NCBI RefSeq assembly: GCF_001677475.2 | Contig: NZ_CP015229.1 | DNA: 64,000 bases | Reading direction: 5' to 3' (one strand) | Source of the DNA: Escherichia coli | GTDB taxonomy: Bacteria > Pseudomonadota > Gammaproteobacteria > Enterobacterales > Enterobacteriaceae | Shown: piece after piece, positions 3,205 through 22,738 of the stretch | Layout: each line of letters begins with the position of its first letter | How positions within the stretch are numbered: position 1 is the stretch's first letter | Notes under the pieces: generated by a model | The model's input: only the letters and a program-made list of their open reading frames with translations | What the model was told of the DNA's origin: nothing | Database searches by the model: none | Translations under genes and position numbers: made by a program

Positions 3205-4362
3205 TTATCTTGATGTTTTAGATATTGCCGGTCCGGCAGCACGCAAAGTTAACTGACGCCAGAGCCATTCCACCGGCCCCTGGCGGAAGTAACGCAGCCA
3301 GATAACAGAGAAGAGGATATTCGCCAGCCATACCGGAATAACAAACGCCAGCAGCTCCAGGCGGTCAAAATGCATAAACAAACCGAGGTGGTAAAAAAGC
3401 GTGGTACAAATCAGCGTTTGCAATAGATAGTTGGTCAGCGCCATCCGTCCGACGCAGGCGATCGCAAGCACCAGCTTAAAGCGGCTCAATTGCGGCCAGA
3501 AGCCATAAAACAGCGACGCATAGCCAATCGCCTGAAACGGCGCACTCAGTTCCCGCGGCATTTGAAGTAAGAAGGCACACCAGCGATACGCCCAGTCCAG
3601 CTGCCATTGCAGGGCGATGGCAGGAAGGTTAATGATCACCCCAATCGCCACCAGCACAAAACCAGTACGACGATAGTGACGTAAGCTGAACTGCCCTTTC
3701 AGCCAGCCGCTGCGCATCAGCGCCGCACCAATGAGCATCATCCCTGCCAGTTGCCAGCCATACTGTGCGCCCAGTGCCAGTAAACTGTTCCCAACACCAT
3801 CGGCACGATTACTGATCGCTTCAACACCACCATGAAGTTTCCAGTATTTTTCATACAAAATAGTCGACGCATCAGGCGTCCAGGCACGGCTGGTCTGGCT
3901 GTCGGAAATCAGCCCCAATAACAGCAAAACGCCAAGCCCCACCAGATAAAGCATGACGCCGGTATTAAACAGGCTTTTTACCGATGGCGCATCGCGCACC
4001 AGCCGCCAGCAGATTAAGCCCACCAGCCCGTAAGCCAGCAGAATATCGCCGTCCCAGAACAATAAACCGTGAATAAAGCCCAGCAAGACTAACAGCGTTA
4101 ACCGCGACTGGATCCAGCGTCTGCCACGGGGCAGCAACATTTGCAGGCCCGCACCAAACAGCAGCGCAAAAAGCGTGAGGAATTTCACCTGGCCGATGAG
4201 ATCGAGAAATGCCCAGGTCCATGCATCCTGTGGCGTAATAGCGCCATACCAGGCGGGATTAAGATAAGCCGCCTTTGGTAGCCCAAAGGCGCTGATGTTT
4301 AATAGCAGGATCCCCAGAATGGCGACGCCGCGAACAAAATCGAGCGTGACGTTGCGCTCCAT
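3205..4362 (-). CDS. yeiB: Inner-membrane protein (DUF418 family)
   Basis: 385-aa hydrophobic multi-TM ORF; conserved position between galS and folE. Confidence 0.8.
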   Translation of the reverse strand: MERNVTLDFVRGVAILGILLLNISAFGLPKAAYLNPAWYGAITPQDAWTWAFLDLIGQVKFLTLFALLFGAGLQMLLPRGRRWIQSRLTLLVLLGFIHGLLFWDGDILLAYGLVGLICWRLVRDAPSVKSLFNTGVMLYLVGLGVLLLLGLISDSQTSRAWTPDASTILYEKYWKLHGGVEAISNRADGVGNSLLALGAQYGWQLAGMMLIGAALMRSGWLKGQFSLRHYRRTGFVLVAIGVIINLPAIALQWQLDWAYRWCAFLLQMPRELSAPFQAIGYASLFYGFWPQLSRFKLVLAIACVGRMALTNYLLQTLICTTLFYHLGLFMHFDRLELLAFVIPVWLANILFSVIWLRYFRQGPVEWLWRQLTLRAAGPAISKTSR

Positions 4363-4378: not shown

Positions 4379-5047
4379 TCAGTTGTGATGACGCACAGCG
4401 CGCAGAAACTCGTGGCGCGTATTCTGACTGGATTTGAACAATCCACCAAGAGAGGTCGTTGTCGTGGCACTGGTTGCATCGCGGATGCCGCGCGCTTTCA
4501 CGCAGTAATGCACCGCGTCGATAGAGACAGCCACGTTATTGGTGCCCAGCAGCGTTTGTAGCGCAATGAGAATTTGCTGGGTCAGACGTTCCTGTACCTG
4601 TGGGCGCTGGGCAAAGAACTGCACGATGCGGTTAATTTTTGACAGACCGATCACCGAATCTTTCGGGATATAAGCCACCGTCGCTTTGCCATCGATGGTA
4701 ACAAAATGGTGTTCACAGGTGCTGGTCAGGGTGATATCGCGCACGGTGACCATTTCATCGACCTTCATTTTGTTTTCAATGAGGGTGATTTTCGGGAAAT
4801 TGGCGTAATCCAGACCGGAGAAAATTTCATCGACATACATTTTAGCGATGCGATGCGGCGTTTCCATCAAACTGTCATCAGCCAGGTCGAGATTCAGCAG
4901 CTGCATGATTTCGGTCATATGACCAGCAATAAGGCTTTTGCGCGTTTCGTTATCCATTTCATGCACGGGCGGGCGCAGCGGTGTTTCCAGTCCTCGCGCA
5001 ACTAACGCTTCATGAACCAGGGCCGCTTCTTTACTGAGTGATGGCAT
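4379..5047 (-). CDS. folE: GTP cyclohydrolase I
   Basis: 222-aa [27 protein letters not shown]... containing the STCEHH motif. Confidence 0.95.
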
Positions 5048-13080: not shown

Positions 13081-14169
13081 ATGAATAACCGGGAAAAGGA
13101 GATCCTTGCAATTTTACGGCGTAACCCGCTGATTCAGCAGAACGAAATTGCGGACATGCTGCAAATCAGTCGTTCGCGCGTTGCGGCGCATATTATGGAT
13201 TTAATGCGTAAAGGGCGGATTAAAGGCAAAGGTTACATTCTCACTGAGCAGGAATACTGCGTAGTGGTGGGGACAATCAATATGGATATTCGCGGGATGG
13301 CGGATATCCGTTACCCGCAAGCGGCTTCTCATCCCGGAACAATTCATTGCTCGGCGGGCGGCGTTGGACGCAATATCGCCCACAATCTGGCGCTGTTAGG
13401 CCGCGACGTCCATTTGCTTTCAGTGATTGGCGATGACTTTTATGGCGAAATGCTCCTGGAAGAAACGCGCCGTGCCGGCGTGAATGTCTCCGGCTGCGTT
13501 CGTTTACATGGCCGAAGCACATCGACGTATCTGGCAATTGCCAATCGAGACGATGAAACCGTGCTGGCGATTAACGATACCCATCTGCTGGAACAGTTAT
13601 CGCCGCAATTATTGAACGGGTCGCGCGATTTACTTCGTCATGCGGGCGTGGTACTGGCTGATTGCAACCTGACAGCCGAGGCGCTGGAGTGGGTCTTTAC
13701 CCTCGCTGATGAAATCCCGGTGTTTGTCGATACCGTTTCAGAATTCAAAGCGGGCAAAATCAAACACTGGCTGGCGCATATTCACACCCTGAAACCCACT
13801 TTACCGGAGCTGGAAATTATATGGGGACAGGCGATCACCAGCGATGCTGACCGTAATGCCGCAGTGAATGCATTGCATCAGCAAGGTGTTCAGCATCTGT
13901 TTGTTTATTTGCCCGATGAGTCAGTTTATTGCAGCGAAAAGGATGGAGAACAATTTTTGCTGACCGCGCCAGCGCATACGACAGTAGACAGTTTTGGTGC
14001 TGACGATGGTTTTATGGCGGGCCTGGTATATAGCTTTCTGGAGGGAAACAATTTCCGTGACAGCGCCCGTTTTGCGATGGCCTGCGCGGCAATTTCACGC
14101 GCCAGCGGCAGCTTAAACAACCCTACCCTGTCTGCCGATAACGCGCTTTCATTAGTGCCAATGGTGTAA
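13081..14169 (+). CDS. yeiI: PfkB-family sugar/nucleoside kinase with N-terminal HTH
   Basis: 362-aa ORF; N-terminal winged-HTH then ribokinase-like fold with GAGD motif near the C-terminus. Confidence 0.85.
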   Translation: MNNREKEILAILRRNPLIQQNEIADMLQISRSRVAAHIMDLMRKGRIKGKGYILTEQEYCVVVGTINMDIRGMADIRYPQAASHPGTIHCSAGGVGRNIAHNLALLGRDVHLLSVIGDDFYGEMLLEETRRAGVNVSGCVRLHGRSTSTYLAIANRDDETVLAINDTHLLEQLSPQLLNGSRDLLRHAGVVLADCNLTAEALEWVFTLADEIPVFVDTVSEFKAGKIKHWLAHIHTLKPTLPELEIIWGQAITSDADRNAAVNALHQQGVQHLFVYLPDESVYCSEKDGEQFLLTAPAHTTVDSFGADDGFMAGLVYSFLEGNNFRDSARFAMACAAISRASGSLNNPTLSADNALSLVPMV

Positions 14170-14224: not shown

Positions 14225-15475
14225 CTACGCTAAGCCAATAAAGAATCCTGCAATGGTGGCACTCATCAGGTTAGAAAGTGTCGCCGCCGCCAGCGCGCGT
14301 AAACCAAGCTGGGCGATTTCCGGCGCACGGTGTGGCGCAACCGCAGAAAACGCCCCCACCACCACCCCGATAGAACCAAAGTTAGCGAAACCGCACAACG
14401 CGAAGGAAATAATCGCCACGGTTTTAGCATCCAGAGTGCAAGCCGTTTGCAGATAGGGTGAGAAATTGAGATAAGCGACAAATTCATTTATTGCCAGTTT
14501 CTGTCCAATCAAACTCCCGGCAAGATTCGCATCACTCCAGTCAACACCCATCACCCACGCTAGTGGGGCCAGCAGGTAACCTAAAATGGACTCCAGCGAG
14601 GCATGTTCAAAACCAAACCAGCCGCCAACGCCGCCGATAATACCGTTAATTAACGCAATGATAGCGACAAATGCCATCACCACTGTCGCCACACCTGCGG
14701 CGATTTTCAGCCCGGTCATTGCCCCTGTCGCAGCGGCTTCAATAATGCTTTTTGGCGGTGTTTCGGTGAAAGAGAGGTTATTAAAGGAAACCTGCGAAGA
14801 TTCCGTTGCCGGGCTTAACAGGCGGGCAAACAAGATCCCGCCGGGGATCGCCATTAACGATGCCGCCAGCAGATATTCCACAGGCACGCCCAGTGCGGCG
14901 TAACCAATCATTGTCGAACCAGCAATCGAGGCCATCCCGCTACAAATCGCTGTAAATAGTTCATTGCGATTCAGACGATCGATAAAGGGTTTGACGATTG
15001 CCGGAATTTCGTTTTGCCCGAGGAAAATGGTAGTGACCGCGACGAATGACTCAATCTTGCTGATATTTAATGCTTTCTGGAATATACCGCCGAGAATGCG
15101 AATTAAGATCCCCATCACACCGATGTAGTAGAGAATACTCACCAGTGCTGTAACGAAGATAATTGCCGGTAATACCCTGAAGCCAAAGATAAATCCTGCG
15201 CCATCAAATAAGGTGTCCATTTTCGGTCCGACCAGAGAACCGAAGATAAAAGCGCTACCTGCATCGCTGTACGCCATCACTTTATGCACGCCAAAAGCGA
15301 CTTTTTCAGCGACCCAACGCCCTGGAGGTAACCAAAGCATAATCCCGCCAATCACGACCTGTAATACCAGCGCCGCACCGACAGTACGCAGGCTGATCTT
15401 CTTCTTGTTTACTGACAGTAAAAATGCAATTGCCAGCAGTACCACCATTCCCAGAACACTTCTCATGACATCCAT
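14225..15475 (-). CDS. nupX: Nucleoside permease (CNT/NupC family)
   Basis: 416-aa ORF, paralogous to the psuT ORF at 17412-18662 (near-identical N- and C-termini). Confidence 0.9.
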   Translation of the reverse strand: MDVMRSVLGMVVLLAIAFLLSVNKKKISLRTVGAALVLQVVIGGIMLWLPPGRWVAEKVAFGVHKVMAYSDAGSAFIFGSLVGPKMDTLFDGAGFIFGFRVLPAIIFVTALVSILYYIGVMGILIRILGGIFQKALNISKIESFVAVTTIFLGQNEIPAIVKPFIDRLNRNELFTAICSGMASIAGSTMIGYAALGVPVEYLLAASLMAIPGGILFARLLSPATESSQVSFNNLSFTETPPKSIIEAAATGAMTGLKIAAGVATVVMAFVAIIALINGIIGGVGGWFGFEHASLESILGYLLAPLAWVMGVDWSDANLAGSLIGQKLAINEFVAYLNFSPYLQTACTLDAKTVAIISFALCGFANFGSIGVVVGAFSAVAPHRAPEIAQLGLRALAAATLSNLMSATIAGFFIGLA

Positions 15476-15574
15476 AGTTATTATCTCTTCATGTCATTTT
15501 GGGCGACGGCTTTCTGCCCATCAGAAATAGCCGGGCCTGCATCTTGCGATACTGACCCGGCTTGTTATCAACAC

Positions 15575-16516
15575 TTAATGGGTTTTGATATAGCCGCGCA
15601 CGCACTCTTCGACTAATCCCCAGAACCAGTCGGTATCAATAGTGATGCCGACTTTGGTATTAGCGGGCTTGCCAAGAACGCCCAGCTCGTCGCAGACAGT
15701 ACGCCCATAGCAAGGTCCACTGTTGACGTCCACTTCGACGTACATCTCCTGGGTTTTAATGCCATCAGGGTTAATCAGATAACCGATGCAGGTGGCGTCA
15801 TGCACCGGGCCGCCAGCCAGGCCGTAGTTTTCGAACTGGGTTTTGAGAGTGAAGTTCATGATGTCGCTGAACAGCTCTCCGGCAGGGCCGCCTGCCCTTT
15901 CCATTCGTGCAATCACGTCCGGGGTGCAAACGGTCTGGTTGGTGAGATCGAGGCCCATCATTACTAATGGAACGCCGGAGGTGAACACCACACGTGCCGC
16001 TTCCGGGTCAGCAAAGATGTTGAACTCGGCAGATGGGGTGAAGTTGCCAGTACCGTAAGCGCCGCCCATTAGCACTATTTCACGGATTTTCGGCAGGATT
16101 GCTGGTTGCATACGCATTGCCACCGCGATATTTGAAAGCGGACCAACCGGCACCAAAGTGATATCGCCATCGCTTGCCATCAGGGTATCAATGATATATT
16201 TCACCGCATGAGTGCTTTCTGCCTGGCGGGTCAGCGGCTCGAATACCGGGCCATCCAGTCCGGTTTCACCGTGAATATTATCGGCAACGATTTGTTGCCG
16301 CATAATGGGCTGTGGCATCCCCGCATAAACCGGAACATTAATCTCCAGTTTCTGGCAAACATTCAGACCATTAATTAATGTTTTATCGAGGGTTTGATTA
16401 CCCGCTACAATGGTGATACCTAATAAATCAATCGCCGGATGTTTCGCTGCCATCATCATTGCAATAGCATCATCATGACCCGGATCACAATCCAGAATAA
16501 TTTTTCTCTTTTCCAT
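15575..16516 (-). CDS. rihB: Pyrimidine-specific ribonucleoside hydrolase
   Basis: 313-aa ORF with N-terminal DCDPGHDDA nucleoside-hydrolase signature. Confidence 0.9.
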
Positions 16517-16684
16517 TGTTTATTTCCTCTGTTTCCAGTTGCGTTATTTTTTCTACAGCAAAGAAAATTCGACCGGGCCGATGATTGAATCTTAACAACA
16601 GCGTACGTATGCTAAATATGAGAAATCTCATAGCGGATAAACATCGTGAAAGAAATCCACAATAATGATCTTAAGCAGCAATTG

Positions 16685-17344
16685 ATGAGTGAATCCGCGT
16701 TTAAGGATTGCTTTTCAACGGATATTTCAGCCGATACGCGGCTGTTTCATTTTTTAGCGCGTGACTACATTGTGCAGGAAGGGCAACAGCCATCCTGGCT
16801 GTTTTACTTGACGCGAGGCCGCGCCAGGCTTTACGCCACGCTTGCTAATGGTCGCGTGTCGCTGATCGATTTCTTTGCCGCGCCCTGTTTTATTGGCGAG
16901 ATTGAGTTAATCGATAAAGACCATGAACCGCGTGCGGTGCAGGCTATTGAAGAGTGTTGGTGTCTTGCGCTCCCTATGAAACATTACCGCCCGCTGTTAT
17001 TAAACGACACGCTATTTTTACGAAAACTCTGCGTCACCTTAAGTCATAAAAATTACCGTAATATTGTTTCTTTAACTCAGAATCAATCATTTCCGTTAGT
17101 GAATCGCCTGGCAGCTTTTATATTACTCTCGCAGGAGGGTGATCTTTATCACGAAAAACATACCCAGGCAGCAGAGTATTTAGGTGTTACTTATCGTCAC
17201 TTGCTATATGTGATCGCTCAACTCATTCACGACGGTTTATTAATTAAAAGTAAGAAAGGGTATTTAATTAAAAACAGAAAGCAGTTGTCAGGACTGGCGC
17301 TGGAGATGGACCCGGAGAATAAATTCTCCGGGATGATGCAGTAA
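16685..17344 (+). CDS. yeiL: CRP/FNR-family transcriptional regulator
   Basis: cNMP-binding-like domain plus C-terminal HTH; start taken at MSESAFKD (the ORF track extends 13 codons upstream to 16646). Confidence 0.8.
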
Positions 17345-17411: not shown

Positions 17412-18662
17412 TCAAGCTAAACCAATAAAGAACCCGGCGATGGTCGCGCTCATCAGGTTGGAAAGCGTTGCTGCTGCCAGCGCCCGTAAACCAAGCTGGG
17501 CGATTTCCGGCGCGCGTTTTGGCGAAATAGCCGAAAATGCGCCAACGACAACACCGATAGAACCAAAGTTAGCAAAACCACAAAGCGCAAAGGAGATAAT
17601 CGCCACGGTTTTCACTTCCAGCGTGCCGCCCGTTTGCAGGTATGGGGAGAAACTCAGGTAAGCGACGAATTCGTTAATCGCCAGTTTCTGCCCAATCAGG
17701 CTACCCGCAAGGTTGGCATCACTCCAGTCCACGCCCATAATCCACGCCAGCGGTGCCAGCACATAGCCAAAAATACTTTCCAGAGAGGCATTGGCGAAAC
17801 CAAACCAGCCGCCAATTCCGCCGATAATGCCGTTGATCAGCGCAATAATTGCGACAAACGCCATTACCACCGTCGCCACACCGGCGGCGATTTTCAACCC
17901 GGTCATCGCACCGCTCGCCGCTGCTTCGATAAAGCTTTTTGGCGGCGTTTCGCTGAACGACAGATTTTCAAATGTCACCTGCGAAGGCTCGGTTGCCGGG
18001 CTAAGAATACGTGCAAACAAAATACCGCCAGGGATCGCCATCAGCGATGCCGCTAACAGGTAGTCAATTGGTACGCCCATTCCGGCATAACCAATCATCA
18101 TCGAACCAGCAATGGACGCCATCCCGCTACAAATTGCGGTAAACAACTCGTTGCGATTCATACGTTCGATAAACGGTTTAACGATCGCAGGGATCTCATT
18201 TTGCCCGAGGAAAATAGTAGTAACCGCAACAAAAGATTCGATTTTGCTGATGTTGAGGGCTTTCTGGAAAATGCTGCCAAGGATGCGAATCAGCAGCCCC
18301 ATCACGCCAATGTAGTACAGCAGACTGATGAGCGCAGTAACGAAAATAATCGCCGGAAGTACGCGAAAGGCGAAGATAAAACCCGCACCGTCAAACAGGA
18401 CATCCATTTTCGGCCCAACCAGCGAACCAAAAATGAAGGCGCTACCGGCATCACTGTAAGACATCACTTTATGAACGCCTAATGCCGCCTGTTCTACTGC
18501 CCATTTTCCCGGTGGGAAGTAGAGCATGATGCCACCAATAGCGATTTGCAGCAGCAGTGCGGCTCCAACCGTGCGCAAACTGATGCCCTTTTTATTCACT
18601 GACAACAGAAATGCTATTGCCAGTAACACCACCATCCCCACAACACTTCTCATTATATCCAT
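17412..18662 (-). CDS. psuT: Pseudouridine/nucleoside transporter (NupC family)
   Basis: 416-aa ORF paralogous to nupX; heads the psuT-psuG-psuK gene string. Confidence 0.85.
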   Translation of the reverse strand: MDIMRSVVGMVVLLAIAFLLSVNKKGISLRTVGAALLLQIAIGGIMLYFPPGKWAVEQAALGVHKVMSYSDAGSAFIFGSLVGPKMDVLFDGAGFIFAFRVLPAIIFVTALISLLYYIGVMGLLIRILGSIFQKALNISKIESFVAVTTIFLGQNEIPAIVKPFIERMNRNELFTAICSGMASIAGSMMIGYAGMGVPIDYLLAASLMAIPGGILFARILSPATEPSQVTFENLSFSETPPKSFIEAAASGAMTGLKIAAGVATVVMAFVAIIALINGIIGGIGGWFGFANASLESIFGYVLAPLAWIMGVDWSDANLAGSLIGQKLAINEFVAYLSFSPYLQTGGTLEVKTVAIISFALCGFANFGSIGVVVGAFSAISPKRAPEIAQLGLRALAAATLSNLMSATIAGFFIGLA

Positions 18663-18755
18663 AATGATTTTCCCTTCATGCCAGTAAACCCGGCGGCAGC
18701 GCCAGGTTTTGGTATGTTTGATGAGTACGGGCGACGGCTTTCTGCCCGTCAGAAA

Positions 18756-19694
18756 TTAACCCGCGAGACGCTGGTATTCTTTGGCAATTTCACTCGCCAG
18801 AATGGCGTTGTTGAACACCAGTTGGATGTTGGATTTCAGGCTGTCACCGCCGGTCAGTTCAGCAACGCGCGCCAGCAGGAATGGCGTACTTTCTTTACCA
18901 ATAACACCCTGCGCTTCAGCTTCAGCTACCGCCTGATCGATCGCCGCATTGATAGTGTGTTCCGGCATAGCAAACTGTTCCGGGATCGGGTTCGCTACCA
19001 CGAGGCCACCGTTCAGCCCGCTTTGCCATTTCACCGCCATTGCACGGGCAATTTCGCTGGCGCTGTCGAGACGAATGCTGACGTCAAACGGGCTGGTGCG
19101 GCAGAAAAACGCAGGCAGCGCTTTTGTCTGATAGCCAATTAACGGCACACCAAAGGTTTCTAAATACTCAGTGGTTAATCCTAAATCGAGAATAGATTTC
19201 GCCCCGGCACAAACAACGGTGACATTAGTATTTGCCAGTTCTTGCAAATCGGCAGAAATATCGAAGGTATGTTCCGCCCCGCGATGCACACCACCAATTC
19301 CCCCGGTGGCAAATACTTTAATTCCGGCAAGCGCCGCAATAATCATCGTTGAAGCCACAGTGGTTGCGCCATTTTTTCCGGCGGCAACAACAAAAGGTAA
19401 ATCGCGACGACTAACTTTGGTCACGTTATGCCCTTCACGACCCAGTAATTCAATTTCTTCTTTGCTTAAACCCACTTTCATCACGCCGCCAATAATGGCG
19501 ATAGTGGCAGGTACTGCGCCCTGTTTACGAATAGTTTCTTCTACTTCAATTGCGGTCTTGGCATTTTGTGGGAACGGCATCCCGTGAGAAATAATGGTTG
19601 ATTCCAGCGCCACAACCGGTTTTTTGTTTTTTAAAGCGTCCTGCACTTCCGGGGAAATTTGTAATAATTCAGGGGAAATTTTTAATTCAGACAT
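18756..19694 (-). CDS. psuG: Pseudouridine-5'-phosphate glycosidase
   Basis: 312-aa ORF of the indigoidine-synthase-A-like family; overlaps the psuK stop. Confidence 0.85.
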   Translation of the reverse strand: MSELKISPELLQISPEVQDALKNKKPVVALESTIISHGMPFPQNAKTAIEVEETIRKQGAVPATIAIIGGVMKVGLSKEEIELLGREGHNVTKVSRRDLPFVVAAGKNGATTVASTMIIAALAGIKVFATGGIGGVHRGAEHTFDISADLQELANTNVTVVCAGAKSILDLGLTTEYLETFGVPLIGYQTKALPAFFCRTSPFDVSIRLDSASEIARAMAVKWQSGLNGGLVVANPIPEQFAMPEHTINAAIDQAVAEAEAQGVIGKESTPFLLARVAELTGGDSLKSNIQLVFNNAILASEIAKEYQRLAG

Positions 19695-20623
19695 TCTGCG
19701 TTCTCCACTAACGATATAACGTTGGCAATCGATAAATCGGGGTTATTGGTGTATTCACAGGAGAGCGCCATTGACGAACATCCCTGTGCGAAACGAACAG
19801 ATTCGGCAAACGGCATTCCGTCTACCCAACACGAAGCAAGTCCCGCCATCATGGCATCGCCCGCTCCGGTAACATTAATAACATTGGTTTTGATCGGGGC
19901 AGACCAGCCACTTTCACCGCTGATATCACTGTAATAAACGCCATCGCCGCCCATGCTCAATACCAGTCGGTTCAGGCCATGTTGATGGAACCAGGCAGCA
20001 ACTTTTGCCACATCTTCACGCCCTGACAGCGCAATCCCACTCAGGGTTTCCGCTTCAAGGCGGTTTGGCTTCAGAGTGTGGATCTGATTTAGACGGTCGC
20101 GCACTTTGACACATTTCCACGCTGAAACCGGATCGACAAATACGGGTACGTTGGCGGCATTATCCAGAATCCATGCCAGTGCCTCTTCACTGATATTACA
20201 GTCCGCGACAATGACCTTTGCCCTCTGAATAAATTCACGGTGCTGTGCGAGATATTCAGCTGTAATAGCGTTGCTAATATTCATGTCATTTATAGCAACC
20301 AGCATTTCACCGGTATTATCGAGTAATGATAAATAACTCGACGTATTTTCTCCCGGCACAATCAGGCATTTATCGACATAAACGCCAGATTGATTGGTTT
20401 GCGTTAGCAGCGATTGACCATAAAAATCACTGCCTACGGCGCTCAGTAGCCAGGCTTTGTTACCCAGCAACGCCAGGTTTTGTGCAATATTGCGCCCTAC
20501 TCCACCAGGCGTAAATTTTATTTTACCTGGATTTGAATCCGCATAATTTAATGATTCATGTGAATATCCGGCGACATCAATATTCGCCGAACCTATAATT
20601 ACGACATAATCCTTTTCGCGCAT
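19682..20623 (-). CDS. psuK: Pseudouridine kinase (PfkB family)
   Basis: 313-aa ribokinase-like ORF with GAGD motif. Confidence 0.85.
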   Translation of the reverse strand: MREKDYVVIIGSANIDVAGYSHESLNYADSNPGKIKFTPGGVGRNIAQNLALLGNKAWLLSAVGSDFYGQSLLTQTNQSGVYVDKCLIVPGENTSSYLSLLDNTGEMLVAINDMNISNAITAEYLAQHREFIQRAKVIVADCNISEEALAWILDNAANVPVFVDPVSAWKCVKVRDRLNQIHTLKPNRLEAETLSGIALSGREDVAKVAAWFHQHGLNRLVLSMGGDGVYYSDISGESGWSAPIKTNVINVTGAGDAMMAGLASCWVDGMPFAESVRFAQGCSSMALSCEYTNNPDLSIANVISLVENAECLN

Positions 20624-21046
20624 AGCACGTCCTCTGGTAAAAAATTACCAACCCTGTCAATCCACAAGAATATAGATACTGCAAAGACGGTTTAAACATG
20701 TGTTCATATTTAAACATGTGCTCATAGTATGCATGTTTTACGTAAAGTAAATTACCGCCAGAGAGGCAAAATGGGCAGATTTGAGCAGGCTCACAAAATG
20801 CGATTAAATGCCTGAATTACAAAAGCGAGGAATTTGTGACGGGATGCACAGAACATGAACACTAAAAAAGGGCAGAAAATAATCTGCCCTTGAGGAAATA
20901 ACCTTAGTGTTTGATGAACGTTTCAGGTTTCTACTGAAAGATAAAACCATTTAAATTCATAAAATTACATTCACAAACCGGTCATTCTCTTTGCGCTCAT
21001 CCAATGATACAGGGCAGGAAATTTCTGCCCTGTAACACACCTTTTA

Positions 21047-22738
21047 TTACGCTGCTTTCGCTACTGCGTCCACTTCCGGACGTTTCAGGAAGGCATAGGC
21101 CAAACCCGCCACCAGCGTACCGGCAATAATTGCTACCAGGTAACCCAGTACCGGCGTAATGGCGCCTGGGATCAGCAGAACAAACAGACCACCGTGTGGT
21201 GCCATCAGTTTCGCACCAATCGCCATTGAGATTGCACCAGTCAGCGCCCCACCCACGATACAGCACGGCAGCACTCGCATCGGATCACGGGCGGCAAACG
21301 GAATTGCACCTTCCGAAATAAAGCACAGACCAAGAACCAGAGCGGCTTTGCCACCTTCCTGCTGCGCTTTGTCGAATTTGCGACGCGCCACCATTGTTGC
21401 CAGGCCCATTGCCAGCGGTGGCACCATACCTGCCGCCATAATCGCCGCCATCGGGCCATAGGTTTGAGTACTCAGCAGACCCACACCGAACGCGTACGCT
21501 GCTTTGTTTACCGGACCGCCCATGTCAGTACACATCATGCCACCGAGGATCGCCCCCAGCAGAACCGCATTCGCAGTCCCCATGGTCTGCAGCCAGTGAG
21601 TCAACCCTTCGAGAATGCCAGCAACCGGTTTACCGATCAGGTAGATCATCGCCAGACCGACCACCAGACTGGAAATTAGCGGAATGATCAGGATCGGTTT
21701 CAGCGCCTCCATACTCTGTGGCAGTTTCAGTTGCGTACTGATTAACTTCGCAATGTAACCAGCCAGGAAGCCCGCAATAATACCGCCAATGAAGCCAGAA
21801 CCGGTGCTGACAGCCAGCATACCGCCAATCAGACCCGGCGTGAGGCCCGGACGATCGGCAATGGAGAAGGCAATATAACCTGCCAGTACCGGCACCATCA
21901 GCGCAAAGGCTGAACCACCACCAATCTGCATCAGCGCCGCTGCCAACGTACCCGGCTCTTTAAACGCTTCGATACCAAAAGCAAAAGAAAGCGCGATACA
22001 CAGACCACCTGCAACGACCATCGGCAGCATGTAAGAAACGCCCGTCAGCAAGTGACGGTAAGCGCCCGCACTCTCTTTCTTACCTTCAGTAGTCGCCGTT
22101 TGAGCTTTGCCCGCCGGTTCATACGGCGTTGCTTCAGCAACCGCTTTATCCAGTTCCTGCGCGGTTTTCTTCAGCGCCAGACCGGTAGAGGTGCGATACA
22201 TCGGTTTACCAGCAAATTTCGCCAGATCCACTTCAATATCTGCCGCCACAATCACCAGATCCGCTGCGGCTACTTCTTCGGGAGTGATTGCATTACCCGC
22301 GCCAACAGAACCACGGGTTTCAACTTTCACCCACCAGCCACGTTTTTTCGCTTCGGTTTCAATGGCTTCAGCCGCCATAAAGGTGTGTGCTACGCCAGTC
22401 GGGCAAGCAGTCACCGCAACTACGCGTTTCGGACCGCTGGCGGCAACCGGTGCTGTCGCAGCGACCGGCGCAGTGTAAGGTTTCGCATGGCCTTTGGCTT
22501 CACTCAGGAACAGCTCAGGGTGCGCAACTGCCCGGGAAATATCGCCCAGCCAGACATTTTTACCGTTCAGCGCGCTGTCGTTCGGGATGGAGTCACCGAG
22601 AACAATCGCCATTTCAGCGTCGTTCGGATTGTCGATGATTTCCAGTTTTGCTTTTCGCGCCGCCGCGCCCAGCAGGGTCTTCGCCATATAGGCGCGTGCC
22701 TGACCGAGATTAGCGTCAATAATCAGCAGCGTTTTCAT
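21047..22738 (-). CDS. fruA: PTS fructose-specific EIIB'BC component
   Basis: 563-aa ORF with duplicated IIB domain and IIC membrane domain. Confidence 0.95.
   Translation of the reverse strand: MKTLLIIDANLGQARAYMAKTLLGAAARKAKLEIIDNPNDAEMAIVLGDSIPNDSALNGKNVWLGDISRAVAHPELFLSEAKGHAKPYTAPVAATAPVAASGPKRVVAVTACPTGVAHTFMAAEAIETEAKKRGWWVKVETRGSVGAGNAITPEEVAAADLVIVAADIEVDLAKFAGKPMYRTSTGLALKKTAQELDKAVAEATPYEPAGKAQTATTEGKKESAGAYRHLLTGVSYMLPMVVAGGLCIALSFAFGIEAFKEPGTLAAALMQIGGGSAFALMVPVLAGYIAFSIADRPGLTPGLIGGMLAVSTGSGFIGGIIAGFLAGYIAKLISTQLKLPQSMEALKPILIIPLISSLVVGLAMIYLIGKPVAGILEGLTHWLQTMGTANAVLLGAILGGMMCTDMGGPVNKAAYAFGVGLLSTQTYGPMAAIMAAGMVPPLAMGLATMVARRKFDKAQQEGGKAALVLGLCFISEGAIPFAARDPMRVLPCCIVGGALTGAISMAIGAKLMAPHGGLFVLLIPGAITPVLGYLVAIIAGTLVAGLAYAFLKRPEVDAVAKAA

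Follow-up and report, generated by a model that had tools for sequence, protein, structure and literature searches.

Organization of the psuK–fruA gap

The gap between psuK and fruA occupies positions 20624–21046 (423 bp) of the window, the whole 64-kb stretch of Escherichia coli DNA that was analysed. It is bordered by psuK (19682–20623, minus strand) and fruA (21047–22738, minus strand). A first-pass annotation had placed these two genes on either side of a gap of about 420 bp, and the open reading frames and RefSeq annotation confirm that assignment. All six fru and psu genes (psuK, psuG, psuT, fruA, fruK and fruB) are encoded on the minus strand, and the gap thus combines, in this order, the 3′ end of fruBKA with the 5′ control region of psuKGT. 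The psuK-psuG-psuT operon (17412–20623, minus strand), defined by its open reading frames and RefSeq annotation, is controlled from this gap. A 551-bp query spanning the gap is matched over at least 80% of its length in 4217 of 5426 complete E. coli genomes, with psuK and fruA as the annotated genes. Dyad symmetry within the units of a tandem repeat, a predicted promoter, CRP-like sites and a link to the yeiI gene are additional to the features listed in the first-pass annotation.

In ∼22% of the E. coli genomes (1194 of 5426), the whole gap is represented by a strongly diverged allele; the B2 strain E2348/69 is among these genomes. This B2-type allele resembles the sequence of E. albertii and contains REP-like sequence after fruA. 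A footprint alignment was built from six Escherichia alleles (the window, K-12, three other Escherichia species or strains and the diverged B2-type allele). The invariant blocks in this alignment comprise a terminator stem with its T run, two CRP-like sites, a −35 hexamer, the spacer motif AAACATGC, a −10 hexamer, two operator-like dyads (O1 and O2) and a hairpin with the adjoining Shine-Dalgarno sequence. The segment between the two hairpins on the fruA side and the leader after O2 are variable. Both the footprint alignment and the cross-genus comparison described below show that the operator-like dyads are conserved beyond their flanking sequence.

Terminator and second hairpin downstream of fruA

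The fruA-proximal half of the gap contains two hairpins, both of which had been noticed in the first-pass annotation. The first (20861–20891, minus strand) was identified by a terminator scan as an intrinsic terminator of fruBKA with a GC-rich 9-bp stem and a T run. Its stem runs from 20891 to 20868 on the minus strand, close to the interval of about 20862–20890 given earlier, and folds at −15.5 kcal/mol (z = −5.35). The terminator is located 156 nt past the fruA stop codon, and its stem and T run are invariant among the Escherichia alleles. In Buttiauxella, the terminator is the sole hairpin after fruA and directly follows the gene. The element thus combines a GC-rich stem-loop and a U tract on the strand of the gene that precedes it, and the earlier suggestion of a terminator holds for the 20868–20891 hairpin on the basis of the scan, the fold, the T run and the conservation. 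The terminator acts on the minus strand and so ends fruBKA rather than serving psuK. It shares the GC-rich stem, the U tract, the position after the last gene and the conservation of Rho-independent E. coli terminators, but differs from them in being preceded, ∼115 nt upstream, by an extra related hairpin that lacks a U tract.

This second hairpin (21009–21033, minus strand) was defined by sequence and fold and lies 14 nt past the fruA stop codon, slightly offset from the interval of about 21001–21030 reported previously. It has no T run, and its stem (GGGCAG/CTGCCC) is similar to the terminator stem. A folding energy of −20.2 kcal/mol (z = −3.9) was computed for the 57-nt stretch that was tested. 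The second hairpin is kept in window-type Escherichia and is different in the B2-type allele. A Cra-like half-palindrome in the fruA 3′ region (20915–20927) is polymorphic, including in K-12.

The possibility of a small RNA, also raised in the first-pass annotation, found no support. A search of positions 19500–22000 against Rfam at a permissive threshold revealed no family that reaches its gathering score. The best match, DapZ, has a score of 25.6 where the gathering score is 56, and its strand is opposite to that of fruA and psuK; like the other sub-threshold matches (a plant microRNA, a human lncRNA and a snoRNA), it was treated as a chance match. Moreover, the ∼115 nt between the two hairpins are the least conserved part of the gap and are replaced by REP-containing sequence in the 1194 genomes with the diverged allele. 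A processed fragment of the fruA 3′ end may nevertheless arise from this region.

Predicted psuK promoter and the adaptive mutation in its −35 hexamer

The psuK-proximal half of the gap contains a predicted promoter with the arrangement TTTACT-16-TACTAT, in which the −35 hexamer TTTACT (20746–20751, minus strand) and the −10 hexamer TACTAT (20724–20729, minus strand) are separated by a 16-nt spacer. The −35 hexamer is invariant in the footprint alignment, and the −10 hexamer is represented by TAYTAT or TACAGT in Escherichia, Citrobacter, Buttiauxella and Salmonella. Judging from this arrangement, transcription would start near position 20717, at an A on the minus strand; the corresponding minus-strand coordinate in NC_000913.3 is 2259390. 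A generic promoter scan missed TTTACT-16-TACTAT because it scores only 8 of 12 consensus matches. The scan returned instead a downstream candidate, TTTAAA-16-TATATT (20696 to 20669 on the minus strand), with 9 of 12 matches. The downstream candidate is not conserved, as a deletion in another Escherichia (L005) collapses its spacer.

Two CRP-like sites, each with one mismatch to TGTGA-N6-TCACA, are located upstream of the predicted promoter. Site 1 (TTTGAGCAGGCTCACA on the plus strand; 20780–20795) is centred at approximately −70.5 from the predicted start and is kept in all of the Escherichia alleles, Citrobacter, Buttiauxella and Salmonella. Site 2 (TGTGACGGGATGCACA on the plus strand; 20835–20850) is centred at approximately −125.5 and is kept in the Escherichia alleles. 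The psuK promoter is probably a CRP-dependent promoter of the sigma-70 type with weak hexamers.

The promoter assignment is supported by a recurrent adaptive mutation. The same single A-to-C change at NC_000913.2 position 2257444, in the psuK–fruA intergenic region, is reported in several experimental-evolution papers. One study found it in five of seven mouse lineages, and a second study found that it arose in both old and young mice. It was also passed between cohoused mice and appeared in three of four long-term stationary-phase cultures, in which the label psuKp was given to it by the authors. The authors place the change in the psuK promoter region and describe altered psuK expression and an increased growth rate. 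The mutated position was located by calibrating the coordinate shift between genome versions on ssrA, with its version-3 coordinates, and then reading the psuK position in NC_000913.3. The mutated base is an A located 126 nt upstream of the psuK ATG, which corresponds to window position 20749. On the coding strand, the change converts TTTACT to TTGACT, nearer to the −35 consensus. Because the mutation falls within the −35 hexamer and improves it, the adaptive change appears to be an up-mutation of the TTTACT-16-TACTAT promoter.

Past O2, the leader consists of ∼45 nt, a small hairpin (GGTAATTTTTTACC), AGAGGA, 6 nt and the ATG. The small hairpin or palindrome (20636–20649, minus strand) directly precedes the psuK Shine-Dalgarno sequence AGAGGA (20630–20635, minus strand) and is thermodynamically weak. 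It is marked by compensatory changes: the GGTAA/TTACC pairing of the window is replaced by GGCAA/TTGCC in B2-type E. coli and Citrobacter and by GGCAT/ATGCC in Salmonella. A sigma-54 promoter (GG-N10-GC) at this palindrome was considered and rejected. The Citrobacter sequence TGGCAAGTTAATTGCC resembles such a promoter, but the GC element is replaced by AC in E. coli, and the sigma-54 reading is further weakened by a spacing that is 14 or 15 nt depending on the species while the pairing is kept.

Tandem repeat and predicted operator pair at the psuK promoter

A tandem repeat at 20691–20726 (minus strand) overlaps the −10 region of the predicted promoter. Tandem Repeats Finder reports it as a single array with a period of 18 bp, 2.0 copies, 94% matches and a score of 65, in agreement with the direct repeat upstream of psuK that had been noted at about 20690–20730. 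The two 18-bp units, TTTAAACATGTGTTCATA and TTTAAACATGTGCTCATA, are identical at 17 of 18 positions and differ by one T/C substitution. An adjacent copy of an 18-mer with at most one mismatch has a chance expectation of ∼1e-6 in the 423-bp gap and ∼2e-4 in the entire 64 kb.

Each unit carries a 14-bp dyad in which a hexamer is followed by 2 bp and an inverted hexamer (consensus YRAACA-NR-TGTTYR), and TRARCA-NN-TGTTTA is present in both units. The two dyads are candidate operators. O1 (TGAGCACATGTTTA in psuK sense; 20711–20724, minus strand) has two mismatches to YAAACANNTGTTTR, and O2 (TGAACACATGTTTA in psuK sense; 20693–20706, minus strand) has one mismatch to this consensus. The first base of O1 is the final base (T) of the −10 hexamer TACTAT, and O1 spans the predicted transcription start. 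The same overlapping geometry is observed in Serratia, Yersinia and Aliivibrio. O2 follows O1 with AATA in between and a centre-to-centre distance of 18 bp, and it is located at approximately +12 to +25 from the predicted start. In the 64-kb window, O1 and O2 are the only intergenic matches to the dyad.

The operator pair is conserved independently of the surrounding sequence. O1 is kept in all of the orthologous promoters that were compared, and paired dyads 17–19 bp apart recur ahead of psu operons in 14 further loci, ranging from other Escherichia to Yersinia, Pasteurella, Shewanella and Aliivibrio. Eleven loci were retrieved in a scan for relatives of PsuK (Escherichia, Citrobacter, Buttiauxella and a Raoultella-labelled metagenome bin), and each of them contains, in this order, a CRP-like site, GATTTACT and TAYTAT or TATCAT ahead of two dyads 18 bp apart. 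In Citrobacter, the pair reads TACTA-TGAACACGTGTTTG-ATAG-TGAACATGTGCTCT. The order TTTACT…TAYTAT followed directly by two dyads 18 bp apart is found in Citrobacter, Buttiauxella, Salmonella and the gammaproteobacterial locus L023. In Salmonella and L023, where yeiI is convergent with psuT-psuG-psuK, the −10 hexamer, O1, 4 bp and O2 are arranged in this order upstream of psuK. The gene upstream of psuK varies, being fruA in Buttiauxella and a member of the LysR family in Citrobacter, and the dyads are kept regardless.

The near-identity of the two units is confined to the window-type Escherichia allele. In other lineages, O2 is more degenerate; this applies to Salmonella and to the proximal Xenorhabdus sites and counts against the operator reading. 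The direct repeat is thus a homogenized pair of older sites. These sites predate the homogenization and are conserved across four orders of gammaproteobacteria. On sequence grounds, the repeat is a conserved pair of putative protein-binding sites that lies atop the psuKGT promoter. The earlier proposal of a regulator site for the pseudouridine operon is thereby strengthened, both by the two dyads that abut the −10 hexamer of a conserved psuK promoter and by the paired motif upstream of psu operons in distant gammaproteobacteria.

Predicted operator motif in distant gammaproteobacteria

The genomic context of YeiI homologs with 41–51% identity was used as a distant test set. YeiI, as described below, combines a winged helix with a PfkB domain, and the gene for such a winged-helix–PfkB protein heads an operon in seven loci (Yersinia, Serratia, Xenorhabdus, Pasteurella testudinis, Shewanella, Aliivibrio and a metagenomic contig). 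It is followed by psuG in all seven loci and also by psuT in four. Two dyads 18–19 bp apart are located just upstream of the winged-helix–PfkB gene in six of the seven loci. The Serratia pair, CAAACTCATGTTTA-AAAA-CAAACAAGTGTCCA, directly follows CTTTACT-15-TATAAA. The Pasteurella pair is CAAACAAAAGTTGA-AAAA-TAAACAGGTGTTGA, and the Shewanella and Aliivibrio pairs, TAAACAAAAGTTTG-5-CAAACATATGTTTG and CAAACAATAGTTAG-5-TGAACATATGTTTG, respectively, are separated by 5 bp. For Xenorhabdus, the scan accepts one proximal site only, and visual inspection of the sequence revealed a second, weaker copy at a distance of ∼17 bp. In three genera (Yersinia, Serratia and Xenorhabdus), a further copy of the dyad lies ∼250 bp upstream, on the far side of the predicted promoter; these extra copies argue for a DNA site over an RNA element and hint at looping.

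To avoid circularity, all 4096 palindromes of the 6-N2-6 type were enumerated with distant loci alone, using 150 bp of upstream sequence from six of them. The lowest mismatch totals were 12 for CAAACANNTGTTTG and 13 for TAAACANNTGTTTA, whereas the best values in 15 shuffled sets were 15–18 mismatches. The consensus of 34 sites is YRAACANRTGTTYR, in which C5 is present in 33 of 34 sites and G10 in all 34. In every examined locus that encodes a winged-helix–PfkB protein, the motif is found upstream of the psu operon.

YeiI as the candidate regulator

The yeiI gene (13081–14169, plus strand) encodes a predicted trans-acting regulator, as indicated by its domains and synteny. YeiI consists of an N-terminal winged helix-turn-helix (residues 1–48) and a PsuK-like PfkB domain (residues 58–348), and both domains are recognized by Pfam (HTH_24, 1.2e-10; PfkB, 4e-68). 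The PfkB domain scores as a pseudouridine kinase (NCBIfam NF007355, 2e-76) and shares 39% sequence identity with PsuK, of which YeiI is a paralog. In the AlphaFold2 model of YeiI (pLDDT 90.3), the N-terminal head contains three α-helices (residues 3–14, 20–27 and 31–43) followed by the wing. The kinase domain of the model superimposes on PsuK crystal structures at 1.7 Å with a target-normalized TM-score of 0.95. A Foldseek search of the model against the PDB returned matches to the kinase domain alone, covering residues 55–359 without the extra head, and no precedent for the helix-plus-kinase combination was found among them. The sequences of the predicted recognition helix (SRSxVA(A/G)HI) and of the wing (IKGKGYIL) hardly vary among 40 homologs with 39–85% identity, which fits a conserved DNA motif.

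The yeiI gene is genomically linked to the psu genes. In Citrobacter, Buttiauxella, Salmonella and L023, the yeiI ortholog is located directly beside psuT in a convergent orientation, and psuT and yeiI are separated in E. coli by the inserted genes yeiL, rihB and nupX. The dyad is not found, at up to two mismatches, in the nfo-yeiI, rihB-yeiL or nupX upstream gaps of the 64-kb window, and it is likewise not found upstream of yeiI in Salmonella or L023. Autoregulation of this split-type yeiI, which is encoded apart from psuK, is thus unsupported, and this result counts against YeiI as the regulator.

The catalytic motifs of the PfkB domain differ between fused and split proteins. The fused proteins that were checked, each encoded first in its operon, all keep GAGD, like PsuK, and KPNxxE is present in all but two, for which the pattern search returned nothing. 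The YeiI-type proteins that coexist with a separate PsuK contain GADD (E. coli, Citrobacter, Salmonella and Enterobacter) or GIDN (L023), and the Affinibrenneria homolog contains GADE. In the split-type proteins, the N residue of NxxE is replaced by T or S, or the motif is absent. YeiI retains equivalents of PsuK residues S30, N143 and K170, which are determinants of pseudouridine recognition (PMC9061257). A psuK mutant cannot use pseudouridine (PMC12506659), and YeiI hence does not replace the kinase. These features suggest that YeiI is a pseudokinase that has kept its pseudouridine-contact residues and may serve as a sensor.

YeiI has been termed uncharacterized (PMC9061257; PMC12506659) or merely listed as a hypothetical transcription factor (PMC6055005), and it is absent from the text of a genomic-SELEX overview of E. 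coli transcription factors (PMC4797297). The literature search retrieved no paper on psu regulation and no report of YeiI binding or of expression in a yeiI mutant. The literature and the PDB entries searched contain no characterized or solved member of the architecture in which a PfkB kinase or pseudokinase carries a winged helix.

Proposed mechanism of psuKGT regulation

The position and conservation of the operator pair and its association with winged-helix–PfkB genes make it probable that psuKGT is repressed by YeiI via the paired operators of the tandem repeat. The winged-helix domain of YeiI would bind O1 and O2. As PfkB kinases are dimers, YeiI dimers on both operators would cover positions −7 to approximately +25 and exclude RNA polymerase. 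Pseudouridine or its 5′-phosphate would act as the inducer that frees YeiI from DNA; the ligand would close the kinase lid, to which both subunits of the dimer contribute, and the resulting rearrangement of the two heads would free the DNA. The promoter, with its weak hexamers, would additionally need CRP-cAMP at approximately −70.5.

In Yersinia, Serratia, Xenorhabdus, Pasteurella, Shewanella and Aliivibrio, the head is attached to the kinase, which would make the protein a bifunctional enzyme-repressor that regulates itself. The simplest reading is that an ancestral kinase-repressor of this kind was duplicated, after which one copy would have lost the head to become PsuK and the other would have lost catalysis to become YeiI, a sensor-regulator, in the lineage of E. 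coli, Citrobacter and Salmonella. The balance of evidence leans slightly toward this broader proposal, in which winged-helix–PfkB proteins form a family of one-component regulators, a working kinase represses its own operon, the functions were split into YeiI and PsuK, and the repeat is the YeiI operator.

The evolution experiments also contain an observation that counts against YeiI. If YeiI were a simple, limiting repressor, loss of yeiI would offer a larger mutational target than a single promoter base. In the mutation tables and text examined on gut and stationary-phase evolution, loss of yeiI is absent and the single −35 change is the only one reported here, and repressor genes such as frlR, srlR, dgoR and glpR are repeatedly mutated in the same experiments. 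The missing yeiI losses could be reconciled with repression if the operon were already induced under these conditions, with promoter strength or catabolite control limiting. It is also possible that YeiI is not purely a repressor and has an activator or dual role.

Alternative readings of the repeat

The dyads could instead be operators of another transcription factor, namely YeiL (CRP/FNR family), RutR (a TetR-type pyrimidine regulator) or CytR, which we consider unlikely. Adjacency speaks for YeiL, whose gene (16646–17344) adjoins psuT in E. coli, and the 6-N2-6 layout recalls the boxes of CRP/FNR-family proteins. However, yeiL, rihB and nupX are missing from the locus in Citrobacter, Buttiauxella, Salmonella and all of the distant taxa, where the dyads are kept, and YeiL is thereby ruled out by synteny. 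The dyad also resembles the RutR box TTGACCAnnTGGTCAA, but the inner half-site positions occupied by CC and GG in that box are A in 31 and T in 28 of the 34 psu sites. Tandem CRP sites such as those upstream of psuK are typical of CytR-controlled nucleoside genes. Against all three candidates, the winged-helix–PfkB protein is the sole DNA-binding protein that is consistently linked to the dyad motif. A related proposal, decidedly improbable in our view, retains YeiI or another protein at the dyads and assigns it an activating role. The dyads would be an activator site at −30 to −66 of the downstream TTTAAA-16-TATATT promoter, which is the candidate that the consensus scan returned with 9 of 12 matches, and the adaptive mutation would create a second, activator-independent promoter. 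Such an arrangement would explain why loss of yeiI has never been selected. Nonetheless, the TTTAAA-16-TATATT hexamers are missing in the B2-type allele, E. albertii, Citrobacter and others, and in Serratia, Yersinia and Aliivibrio, the dyads are located between the −10 hexamer and the start codon, which leaves no room for a downstream promoter.

It is highly unlikely that the repeat acts as RNA in the psuK leader, whether as a stabilizing stem-loop, a ligand-sensing or attenuating structure or a platform for the small RNA RprA. The predicted 94-nt leader does fold at −25 kcal/mol (z = −3.1), with an 11-bp hairpin formed by the repeat itself, and the O1 and O2 dyads can pair together as RNA. 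However, any two tandem palindromes can pair in this manner, and the leader fold is therefore a by-product. Furthermore, approximately half of O1 is located upstream of the predicted start, and the extra dyad copies in three genera lie ∼250 bp upstream, beyond the predicted promoter. No Rfam family matches the leader. The listing of psuK as an RprA target common to TRIC-seq and RIL-seq (bioRxiv 10.1101/2025.09.11.675593) was counted in favour of an RNA role, but the predicted duplex between RprA and the leader is no better than those of shuffled sequences, 22% of which score at least as well. A recent, neutral duplication without function is barely credible. The restriction of the 17/18 unit identity to the window-type Escherichia allele would fit a recent origin, but this reading is contradicted by the age of both sites, which are older than the homogenization and conserved across four gammaproteobacterial orders. 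Repression by YeiI through O1 and O2 is the preferred reading.

Significance of the putative operator pair and YeiI

The psuK–fruA gap is among the most repeatable targets of selection in E. coli, both during mouse gut colonization and in long-term stationary phase, and the same base is affected each time. The present analysis provides a base-level map of the predicted promoter and operators, a reading of the adaptive mutation as a −35 up-mutation and a specific candidate regulator, YeiI. Pseudouridine is the most abundant modified nucleoside from RNA turnover. If the proposal is correct, the orphan E. coli gene yeiI would gain a function as part of a natural pseudouridine-responsive switch, a new enzyme-derived architecture would be added to the transcription factors, and YeiI and PsuK would constitute a clear case of an enzyme-repressor that split into an enzyme and a pseudoenzyme sensor. 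The switch could possibly be developed into a pseudouridine biosensor for strains that make pseudouridine for mRNA manufacture.

Comparison with known regulatory systems

The psu dyad resembles the PrfA box (TTAACAnnTGTTAA) and the RutR box (TTGACCAnnTGGTCAA) in its overall design, in that all three are 14–16 bp in length and consist of hexamer half-sites that are 2 bp apart. The psu half-sites are characterized by AACA/TGTT, in contrast to TAACA in the PrfA box and GACCA in the RutR box, and the cognate proteins of these boxes belong to the Crp/Fnr and TetR families, respectively, and are unlinked to psu genes.

A parallel to the YeiI architecture is provided by NagC and Mlc, ROK-family repressors in which a DNA-binding head is attached to a sensor domain that derives from a sugar kinase, binds a pathway metabolite and has little or no catalysis. 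NagC and Mlc control the matching catabolic or transport operon via dyad operators at its promoter. YeiI likewise contains a helix-turn-helix fused to a domain of sugar-kinase descent, and its sensing and control functions are proposed here. YeiI differs from NagC and Mlc in its sensor fold, which is of the PfkB/ribokinase type rather than the ROK/ASKHA type, and in its head, a short HTH_24 winged helix.

The fused HTH-PsuK proteins of Yersinia, Pasteurella, Shewanella and other genera are comparable to BirA, NadR and PutA, as an apparently active enzyme is combined with a DNA-binding domain in one polypeptide chain. The fused gene heads the operon that is proposed as the target of its own product, and substrate turnover and repression would thus be coupled. 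The HTH-PsuK proteins are distinguished from BirA, NadR and PutA by their enzyme class and ligand and by the apparent fate of the two functions in E. coli, where they are split into PsuK and YeiI.

Predicted operator copies and start codons at psuK promoters

The predicted operators O1 (20711-20724) and O2 (20693-20706) of the psuK promoter are paired 14-bp dyads, and the counterpart of O1 bears on the annotation of the winged-helix-PsuK genes in Yersinia and Serratia. Both genes are annotated to encode 372 residues, with the called ATG falling within O1; it is the following ATG that lines up with the N-termini of all other homologs. The annotated starts in Yersinia (locus L015, 7001-7030) and Serratia (locus L018, 6001-6027) are probably placed 9-10 codons too far upstream.

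In Yersinia, Serratia and Xenorhabdus, a third, well-conserved dyad copy, AACCAAACAnnnGTTnGGTT, precedes the proximal operators by ~250 bp (at ~-279, ~-284 and ~-286 in loci L015, L018 and L020, respectively, counted from the corrected start codon). This additional copy suggests DNA looping in these three genera. No counterpart of the far-upstream copy is found in the E. coli group. Within the spacer that separates the predicted -35 hexamer from the -10 hexamer (window 20733-20745), a half-site-like AAAACA(T/C)GC motif is conserved in all Enterobacteriaceae loci. It may constitute a third, partial contact for the putative regulator.

The psuK leader

Immediately 5' of the psuK Shine-Dalgarno sequence, a hairpin or palindrome spans 20636-20649, and its pairing is preserved by compensatory substitutions affecting two positions (GGTAA/TTACC, GGCAA/TTGCC and GGCAT/ATGCC). 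The element may influence translation or the stability of the mRNA, or may serve as a protein site. In Citrobacter it looks like a sigma-54 promoter, a reading that was rejected, but the spacing differs among species. One Escherichia strain carries a ~14-bp leader deletion immediately 3' of O2 (locus L005, ~3925-3945), which leaves both operators and the hairpin intact. A 2025 preprint (bioRxiv 10.1101/2025.09.11.675593) lists psuK as an RprA target shared between the TRIC-seq and RIL-seq data. A search of the psuK mRNA leader (20624-20717) located no convincing RprA pairing site.

Divergence of the psuK-fruA gap and its surroundings

Two deeply diverged gap alleles exist within E. coli (window 20560-21110 versus 4455-5037 of the B2-type locus L002). 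The window-type allele is present in 4217 genomes and the B2-type allele, which is similar to that of E. albertii, in 1194 of 5426. The divergence is not confined to the gap but also affects the final codons of fruA and the initial codons of psuK. In the minor, B2-type allele, a REP-like sequence follows fruA. This pattern looks like an old polymorphism or introgression.

On the fruA side, the hairpins at 20868-20891 and 21009-21033 have the stem core GGGCAG/CTGCCC in common. This arrangement resembles a duplication of the terminator, with a non-conserved insertion of ~115 nt separating the two copies. The fruA 3' untranslated region also contains a Cra/FruR-like half-palindrome (20915-20927; plus strand, TGAACGTTTCAGG; minus strand, CCTGAAACGTTCA), which varies among strains and reads TTCAAACGTTCA in K-12.

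In Escherichia, psuT is separated from yeiI by yeiL, rihB and nupX (window 14225-17344). In Citrobacter, Buttiauxella and Salmonella, psuT directly adjoins yeiI, and the three genes are absent from that position. From this gene order, yeiL, rihB and nupX appear to have been inserted into a pre-existing psuKGT-yeiI unit.
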